The position numbers are program-made. This document shows positions 27,501 through 29,827 of a DNA stretch of 64,000 bases, one piece after another. Every line of letters begins with the position of its first letter. Position 1 is the first letter of the stretch. Source of the DNA: Escherichia coli (GTDB taxonomy: Bacteria; Pseudomonadota; Gammaproteobacteria; Enterobacterales; Enterobacteriaceae); assembly GCF_002854065.1 (NCBI RefSeq), contig NZ_CP024147.1. One strand, given 5' to 3'.

Positions 27501-29827
27501 TCAGCCGTTGCCGGTGGGGCGATAGGCCTGTTGTTCGAAAACGTGTTGATGGTGCTGCTCAAGCCCGTTCTGCCTGCTGCACTACCGCCAGCCAGCCTCT
27601 GTCCGTGGCTGTGGGCGCTCGGCACCATGACAGTCATCTCGCTGCTGGTGGGGCTACGACCGTACCGCTTGTTGTTGGCAACGCAGCCTTTACGCGTATT
27701 ACGTAATGATGTGGTAGCGAACGTCTGGCCGCTGAAGTTTTATCTGCCGATTGTCAGTGTGGTGGTTGTGCTGCTGCTCGCCGGATTAATGGGCGGCAGT
27801 ATGCTGCTCTGGGCGGTGCTGGCGGGCGCGGTAGTACTGGCTTTGCTGTGCGGTGTGCTGGGCTGGATGCTGCTGAATGTACTTCGCCGCATGACGCTGA
27901 AATCGCTGCCTCTGCGCCTGGCGGTTAGCCGCCTGTTACGTCAGCCGTGGTCAACGTTAAGCCAGCTTTCGGCATTTTCGCTCTCCTTTATGCTGCTGGC
28001 ACTGCTACTGGTGCTGCGTGGCGATTTGCTCGACCGCTGGCAGCAGCAGCTACCGCCAGAAAGCCCGAACTACTTTTTAATCAACCTCGCCACAGAACAG
28101 GTAGCACCGCTAAAAGCGTTCCTCGCGGAACATCAGATAGTCCCGGAATCGTTTTATCCGATGGTGCGGGCACGGCTGACGGCGATTAACGATAAGCCGA
28201 CAGAAGGTAATGAAGATGAGGCGCTTAACCGCGAACTCAATCTTACCTGGCAAAATACGCGGCCCGATCATAATCCGATTGTCGCCGGTAACTGGCCGCC
28301 AAAAGCCGATGAAGTGTCGATGGAAGAGGGGCTGGCGAAACGCTTAAACGTTGCCCTCGGCGATACTGTGACTTTTATGGGCGATACCCAGGAGTTCCGC
28401 GCTAAAGTGACCAGCCTGCGCAAAGTGGACTGGGAAAGTCTGCGGCCTAATTTCTATTTTATTTTCCCTGAAGGGGCATTAGACGGGCAACCGCAGAGCT
28501 GGCTTACCAGTTTCCGCTGGGAGAATGGCAACGGCATGTTGACGCAACTCAACCGCCAGTTCCCTACCATTAGCCTGTTAGACATTGGCGCGATTTTAAA
28601 ACAGGTCGGTCAGGTGCTGGAGCAGGTAAGTCGGGCGCTGGAGGTGATGGTGGTGCTGGTCACCGCCTGCGGTATGTTGCTGTTGCTGGCACAGGTGCAG
28701 GTGGGAATGCGTCAGCGTCATCAGGAGCTGGTGGTGTGGCGCACACTCGGTGCGGGGAAAAAACTGCTGCGTACCACGTTGTGGTGTGAGTTCGCCATGC
28801 TTGGGTTTGTTTCCGGCCTGGTGGCCGCAATTGGTGCGGAAACGGCACTGGCAGTGTTGCAGGCGAAAGTGTTTGATTTTCCGTGGGAGCCAGACTGGCG
28901 ATTGTGGATTGTTCTGCCGTGCAGCGGTGCGCTGCTGCTGTCGCTTTGCGGCGGCTGGCTGGGCGCACGACTGGTTAAGGGTAAGGCGCTGTTCAGGCAG
29001 TTTGCGGGGTGATGACAGGTGTTAGATTGCCTGATGCGCTACGCTTATCAGGCCTACGAATATCGTGCAATATATTGATTTTGCAAGATTTTGTAGGCCG
29101 GATAAGGCGTTTGCGCCGCATCCGGCAGTTGTGCGGCGGTGCCTGATGCGACGCTGGCGCGTCTTATCATGCCTACAAAACTGCACTCAACCGTAGGCCG
29201 GATAAGGCGTTTACGCCGCATCTGGCATGAACAGTGTGCATTTTGGCAATAAATATGAAACCAACTGTCATGTCGGTTTTTTTAAAGGCCGAAGGTGGTA
29301 AACCTTCGGCCTTAGCGACGTTTCCTCAGTTATTCAATAAACTGACGGATCAGTTCCAGCAGCGCGATTAGCGCCTTAAGAACGATGAGAACTTTATCGA
29401 GAAAAGTTTTCATCCGTTGCTCCCTTAAGGGAGAAAGACAATCACAGCTTACCCTTACGTTGCCTGTAACTATGATTTTCTTCATGTGCTAGATGAGGAC
29501 TGCCTCTCTCCAAATTAGAGCACCAGAATCAGCACCACCTGTATCCTGACCAGGACTTAAAAGTACTTTTCCGCACTGCGGTAATCCCTTGAGGCAGTAT
29601 CACTACTAGCGTCGGGATTGTATCGCCAACATAGCTGTTTGAATATGTAGGCATCCTGACTTATAATTCACTTGCTAGATGAGGACTGTTTCATTTCTGC
29701 CCGGAACCACCAAGTCTTGGGCGGAAAAAATAAAAAAAACGACTGTCATGTCGGTTTTTTTATATCTGTATTCTGGTGCAACCATTCTGTTCTCACGACA
29801 ATCGCCGTTTCAGAATACCGCCCATCA

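Follow-up and report, generated by a model that had tools for sequence, protein, structure and literature searches.

A short, Rhs-free ybbP-selU interval in Escherichia coli, with a REP cluster and a sequence-predicted DinQ/AgrB-type toxin-antitoxin module, as a probable allele of a multi-allelic replacement site

What lies between ybbP and selU in this E. coli genome, and how does it relate to the rhsD element that is found at the same place in K-12? The initial annotation of the window (the whole 64-kb stretch of DNA analysed here) placed the two genes about 0.8 kb apart, with only a REP cluster and a candidate type I toxin-antitoxin (TA) locus between them and without K-12 rhsD or any Rhs core, ybbC-like or transposase-like ORF. 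It placed rhsD and several small ORFs at this position in K-12, took the interval for an Rhs-free allele of a known variable site and pointed to REP clusters at such junctions as frequent recombination substrates. We measured the gap as 812 bp (29013-29824) between the stop codons of two convergent genes, which are the conserved flanks of the site:

26598 to 29012, plus strand: ybbP, ABC transporter permease, 804 aa, left conserved flank
29825 to 30919, minus strand: selU/mnmH, tRNA 2-selenouridine synthase, 364 aa, right conserved flank

The left flank common to all alleles described below is ybbP up to 1-3 bp past its stop codon. Beyond selU the window continues with allS, allA and allR in the same order as in K-12.

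In the K-12 MG1655 annotation the gene order is ybbP, rhsD, ybbC, ylbH, ybbD, ylbI, ylbG and selU, and the stop codons of ybbP and selU are 7,296 bp apart. The K-12 arrangement given in the initial annotation is confirmed, and ybbP is not directly adjacent to selU in that strain. Besides the Rhs toxin and its immunity protein YbbC, the K-12 element contains orphan tips and the IS481-like ylbG. The latter is a transposase fragment (IS481 family, N-terminal part) that abuts selU and forms the right junction of the element. We defined an Rhs element of the RhsD type by a YD-repeat core ORF of ~1,400 aa whose C-terminal toxin tip varies, and further by the presence, downstream, of an immunity gene (ybbC, Imm-NTF2-2), of orphan tips and of an IS-like fragment (ylbG). 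Unlike the K-12 element, the window has no Rhs core, YbbC immunity gene, orphan tips or ylbG IS fragment: tblastn with RhsD, YbbC, YlbG, an Hcp-ET protein and DUF2931 gave zero matches in the entire 64 kb, blastn with the 7.3-kb K-12 element as the query likewise gave zero, and no ORF that overlaps the gap has the size of an RhsD-type core. The window and the K-12 RhsD allele have no sequence in common between the stop codons. All ORFs overlapping the gap are at most 55 aa long, apart from three that run into the selU coding sequence, which are frame-shadow ORFs of 74 and 88 aa on the plus strand and 62 aa on the minus strand without a family match. The content described by the initial annotation, REP cluster and TA locus only, therefore held in the tblastn and blastn searches and in the ORF scan.

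Rhs presence and absence were reportedly described by Hill and colleagues in ECOR-era papers. The gap is the same chromosomal site as that of the K-12 RhsD element, between the same two convergent genes, and it corresponds to Rhs locus 3 (ybbA..ybbB) of Jackson et al. 2009, documented as a site of presence and absence among strains and absent from one group of pathogenic strains (PMC2935791), so that the description as an Rhs-free allele of a known variable site was justified.

The convergent ybbP-selU pair is kept across the Enterobacteriaceae, with a gap that ranges from 66 bp to 5.4 kb. In Citrobacter, Kosakonia, Kluyvera, Superficieibacter and Buttiauxella a porin-like gene of ~380 aa is often present in the gap, either alone or together with a MetNIQ-like ABC transporter; these genes presumably resemble Salmonella sfbABC.

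In the window, the gap is filled by the following features:

about 29030 to 29235, unstranded: REP/BIME cluster with four REP palindromes in alternating orientation (Rfam, repeat analysis and alignments)
29240 to 29814, unstranded: TA insertion of ~575 bp in comparison with the REP-only allele that UPEC 536 and E. albertii carry (alignments)
29245 to 29284, plus strand: left D1, a 40-nt direct repeat that is a copy of the AgrB-like terminator region (repeat analysis)
29285 to 29313, minus strand: perfect 12-bp inverted repeat AAGGCCGAAGGT/ACCTTCGGCCTT, immediately beyond the stop codon of the toxin gene (repeat analysis; aligns with the K-12 dinQ terminator)
29330 to 29413, minus strand: DinQ-like toxin ORF of 27 aa, MKTFLDKVLIVLKALIALLELIRQFIE, stop codon included in the coordinates (profile match, PGAP)
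29481 to 29502, minus strand: antisense target in the 5' UTR of the toxin mRNA (direct-repeat partner of the 5' end of the sRNA gene)
29639 to 29667, plus strand: sigma-70-like promoter of the sRNA gene, TTGAAT, 17 nt, TATAAT (near-consensus, by consensus scan)
29675 to 29763, plus strand: AgrB-like antisense sRNA gene (Rfam RF02891 AgrB, 46.4 bits against a gathering score of 40)
29764 to 29824, unstranded: right-hand spacer from the sRNA terminator to the selU stop codon, the greater part of which is confined to TA-type and solo-D1 alleles

The first of these, the REP/BIME cluster, consists of GC-rich imperfect palindromes of ~35 nt that alternate in orientation and are repeated genome-wide. 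Two REP-derived Rfam models, naRNA4 (79.1 bits) and ES036 (55.3 bits), match it above their gathering scores, and the REP sequence recurs within each E. coli genome, with a median of 36 places (range 12-56). A 100-bp BIME unit is duplicated in the window (29093-29127 and 29193-29227). Two such units are found in the window and in E. albertii, and one copy in most other short alleles of the site. The majority of TA-bearing genomes have a single unit, so the exact form in the window is a rare sub-variant among the TA alleles. REP-REP exchange is visible only in the number of 100-bp BIME units, one of which has been gained or lost among the short alleles. The cluster is like other REP/BIME clusters between convergent genes in its alternating palindromes just after a stop codon, its genome-wide dispersal and its varying unit number. 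Compared with ordinary clusters it shows nothing unusual, and here it does not mark an Rhs junction.

The 575-bp insertion next to the cluster contains the left D1, the toxin gene, the sRNA gene, the right D1 and a spacer of ~52 bp, and the two D1 copies (29245-29284 and 29723-29762) bracket a unit of 478 bp. The toxin is encoded from 29413 down to 29333, with the stop codon at 29332-29330. It is a short, single-transmembrane peptide. The cutoff of the NCBIfam model NF041472 (toxin_DinQ), 30 bits, is exceeded by the 27-aa form (40.9 bits) and by a longer version of 51 aa (29330..29485; 38.4 bits), and in other genomes one or the other form already carries the PGAP label dinQ. Together with the AgrB match above its gathering score, this bears out the candidate type I TA locus of the initial annotation.

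Downstream of the toxin gene, the 12-bp inverted repeat is likely the terminator stem of the toxin mRNA, and the left D1, read on the minus strand, is predicted to be able to form a further terminator-like hairpin. The sRNA gene is divergent and has its own promoter and terminator; the latter is the right D1 copy, a hairpin followed by T7. A 22-nt direct repeat (29481-29502 and 29667-29688, 20 of 22 positions identical) makes the 5' end of the sRNA complementary to the leader of the toxin mRNA. The predicted energy of the duplex between the sRNA and the toxin leader is -72.8 kcal/mol, compared with -43.7 +/- 4.3 for shuffles, and the 5' end of the sRNA is thus antisense to the 5' UTR of the toxin mRNA. 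The consensus scan found the sRNA promoter only and no convincing sigma-70 promoter for the toxin gene. Moreover, no LexA operator (CTG-N10-CAG) is present in 29236-29824, and the LexA box of K-12 dinQ aligns with a stretch of the TA locus that has a 7-nt gap. As the LexA box is missing, the ybbP-selU copy gives no support to the term "damage-inducible" of the PGAP product name, and the name "damage-inducible type I toxin DinQ" may be misleading for it. By its sequence, the locus is classified as a DinQ/AgrB-type (dql-type) type I toxin-antitoxin module, in which the sRNA would repress the putative toxin as AgrB represses DinQ, without SOS/LexA control.

The whole TA locus of the gap is 67% identical to K-12 dinQ-agrA. 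Of 5,426 complete E. coli genomes, 5,422 have the canonical dinQ locus, and the ybbP-selU copy is therefore a second one. Compared with K-12 dinQ-agrAB (located at gor-arsR; Weel-Sneve 2013, PMC3567139) and with dql, it has the same kind of 27-aa hydrophobic peptide with the ALIALLELIR core. The layout is also that of K-12 dinQ-agrAB: the toxin gene has a long 5' UTR, to which the divergent sRNA is antisense with its 5' end. In contrast to the K-12 locus, the gap copy lies at a different site, has one Agr-like gene instead of two, starts with ATG, lacks a LexA operator and carries a partial copy of the sRNA terminator downstream of the toxin gene. Kristiansen et al. 2016 defined the dinQ paralogues as dql (dinQ-like) genes and noted that some strains carry dql together with dinQ (PMC5066626). 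The gap toxin scored below the cutoff of the DqlB model. The K-12 dinQ-agrA query also gave 83 matches on plasmids, and sequence variation across E. coli is much greater at the canonical dinQ locus (90-99% identity) than in the copy between ybbP and selU.

To place the window among other strains, the fillings of the gap were counted over the same 5,426 complete E. coli genomes:

1,899 genomes: short alleles, with the flanks at most 1.1 kb apart
1,326 of the short alleles: TA core present (REP cluster and DinQ-like TA, as in the window)
~570 of the short alleles: REP only or similar (by subtraction)
2,859 genomes: K-12-type leader and 5' end of rhsD (the query excluded ybbP, and adjacency to ybbP was taken from the near-complete partition of the genomes, not from each genome)
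574 genomes: Hcp-Tle1-like effector (667 aa) and DUF2931 genes
~90 genomes: other fillings (by subtraction)

The gap fillings are about four in number and mutually exclusive, and what looks like presence or absence of Rhs is a four-way allelic series with identical boundaries. The TA-type allele is found in roughly a quarter of the sequenced E. coli, the rhsD element of 6-7 kb in about half and the Hcp-Tle1-like allele in ~10%.

The Hcp-ET (Hcp with an extended toxin domain) island is a Type VI secretion system (T6SS) island that encodes a 667-aa Hcp fused to a Tle1-like phospholipase domain, together with two or three DUF2931 genes. One example is ZH193 (ST131-type; 14682-18684 of its locus), and E. 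whittamii carries the island as well. The window lacks it; its relevance is that, as an alternative occupant of the identical ybbP-selU gap in the 574 genomes, including ST131, it shows the site to be a general cassette-exchange site. The "other" class includes CUWW10 (7001-8566 of its locus), in which IS1A deleted the rhs core and left 75 bp of the K-12 leader and ylbI/ylbG remnants as scars.

Among the TA-bearing genomes, 1,130 of 1,326 have an intact core. A 108-bp deletion is present in ~195 of the 1,326 (29384-29501 in window coordinates; for example in strain 2017.09.02CC) and lies between imperfect 10-bp direct repeats, GATGAG(A/G)ACT. It takes out the start codon of the toxin, the Shine-Dalgarno site and the sRNA target, while the AgrB-like sRNA gene stays behind as an orphan antitoxin.

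Which of these states came first? In E. albertii and UPEC 536 the REP cluster is followed directly by selU, and the E. albertii cluster is 89% identical to that of the window over 221 bp. By parsimony with E. albertii as the one outgroup, the REP-only, Rhs-free state is probably the ancestral one. This agrees with the inference of Jackson et al. 2009 that locus 3 was filled, via duplication of another Rhs locus, once one group of pathogenic strains had split off (PMC2935791). The TA was inserted separately and later. In the divergent Escherichia lineage SCPM-O-B-8794 the gap holds REP, one D1 and the spacer, which equals the window allele minus one D1-to-D1 unit. This solo-D1 allele is most simply read as a loss of the TA by recombination between the D1 repeats; the form would occur in at most about five complete E. 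coli genomes, an indirect bound obtained from counts of 1,332 versus 1,326.

In five diverse carriers the TA block is 0.3-0.9% diverged from the window, compared with 2-4% for ybbP and selU in the same genomes, i.e. it is 5-10 times less diverged than the flanking genes. As a control within E. coli we used the intergenic regions selU-allS, allS-allA and allA-allR, which are 0.3-0.8% diverged against 0.3-0.7% for the TA. This equal divergence indicates that ordinary constraint explains most of the conservation of the TA. A young, recently spread cassette was initially considered as the main claim and was dropped, as neighbouring intergenic regions are equally conserved within E. coli. In Escherichia sp. 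E1V33 the TA is 0.85% diverged compared with 4.0% for neighbouring intergenic DNA (p=0.0017), a single data point that is suggestive of exchange between lineages.

The same data bear on the reading of the TA cassette as a recently spread, semi-autonomous selfish module with precise ends instead of an old vertical resident. The 40-nt direct repeats that bracket it and the existence of a solo-repeat allele would fit such a module, as would an identity of at least 99% in 1,256 of 1,326 genomes with flanks differing by up to 4%, and the E1V33 comparison points the same way. Set against this are the match with intergenic divergence in E. coli, the lack of any mobility gene and the occurrence at a single site only, and we consider a selfish module unlikely. 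A broader reading would make the ybbP-selU terminator gap a dedicated toxin-cassette exchange site, at which the repeat-bracketed DinQ-like module is selfish, spreads between Escherichia lineages and resists replacement by larger T6SS-toxin islands via post-segregational toxicity. Candidate cassettes would be the type I TA, the Rhs toxin plus immunity gene, and the Hcp-fused effector that comes with DUF2931 genes. On the present comparisons, this reading is decidedly unlikely.

The allelic series leaves the question of how one filling gives way to another. The alignment of the window with K-12 and other E. coli genomes, proposed in the initial annotation as the way to define the Rhs insertion point, placed the boundaries of the rhsD element within 3 bp of both stop codons and not within the REP or TA sequences. 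The window aligns with K-12 up to 29015 and again from 29823, with unrelated K-12 bases in between; in other words, homology stops 3 bp past the ybbP stop codon and resumes 2 bp before that of selU. After ybbP, the window, K-12, O157:H7 and ZH193 all read ...GCGGGGTGATG and then diverge completely; on this left side, K-12, O157:H7 and the Hcp-ET allele stay homologous to the window as far as 1-3 bp past the ybbP stop codon. On the right side, K-12 and O157:H7 re-converge with the window 2 bp outside the selU stop codon, and ZH193 does so inside selU, the last codons of which are rewritten to give a protein of 368 aa. No REP or TA remnants were detected in the K-12 and O157 elements by blastn down to 7-nt words, and the Hcp-ET allele likewise keeps none of the REP or TA sequence. 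The alignments indicate that the rhsD element is a replacement of the whole interval and not an insertion into REP or TA sequence. Because the whole interval is replaced, Rhs has no position relative to REP and TA, and because the Rhs allele keeps nothing of the short allele, the original insertion event is not reconstructible from it. Strains would swap the alleles by homologous recombination in the conserved flanks.

One genome in 5,426, O157:H7 TR01, has a hybrid pattern (8900-9100 of its locus): an Rhs/ylbG allele that ends in the final 49 bp (~50 bp) of window-type spacer, corresponding to 29776-29824. This hybrid speaks for recombination between alleles at a breakpoint within the gap.

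The junctions do not sustain the role in the entry of Rhs that the initial annotation had implied for the REPs, as they lie at the stop codons and no REP is retained. An entry at the REP cluster could still be saved by assuming that the remaining old intergenic DNA was deleted later, for example by the adjacent IS481-like element. The ylbG fragment of the IS481 family abuts selU, which makes an adjacent deletion conceivable, and the polymorphism of the 100-bp unit shows that REP units do recombine here. The K-12 and O157 elements, however, are free of REP and TA remnants even at 7-nt words, and the unrelated Hcp-ET island uses the same boundaries at the stop codons, which makes this course of events highly improbable. 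A secondary loss from a K-12-like rhsD ancestor by an IS- or repeat-mediated deletion is largely refuted and barely credible: such deletions do occur, as in CUWW10, which lost its rhs core through IS1A, and IS1 lies within the leader in other genomes, but CUWW10 as a true deletion derivative keeps its leader and ylbI/ylbG remnants, whereas the window has none, resembles no part of the 7.3-kb element at the DNA or protein level and has its REP cluster in common with E. albertii. The reading that we prefer, and hold to be very probable, is that the gap in the window is one allele of a multi-allelic replacement site, in its short, Rhs-free form.

Much of this was already known: the variable Rhs site (Jackson 2009) and the dinQ-like family (Kristiansen 2016) are published, and PGAP labels the toxin gene. 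Mildly new are the exact four-way series with common boundaries, the repeat-bracketed TA insertion together with the solo-repeat allele, and the missing LexA box. The finding matters little beyond annotation hygiene: the strain is without the contact-dependent toxin locus rhsD and instead has a second TA of the DinQ family. The four-way series is useful for pangenome typing, for Rhs/T6SS effector repertoires and for the copy number of type I TA loci.
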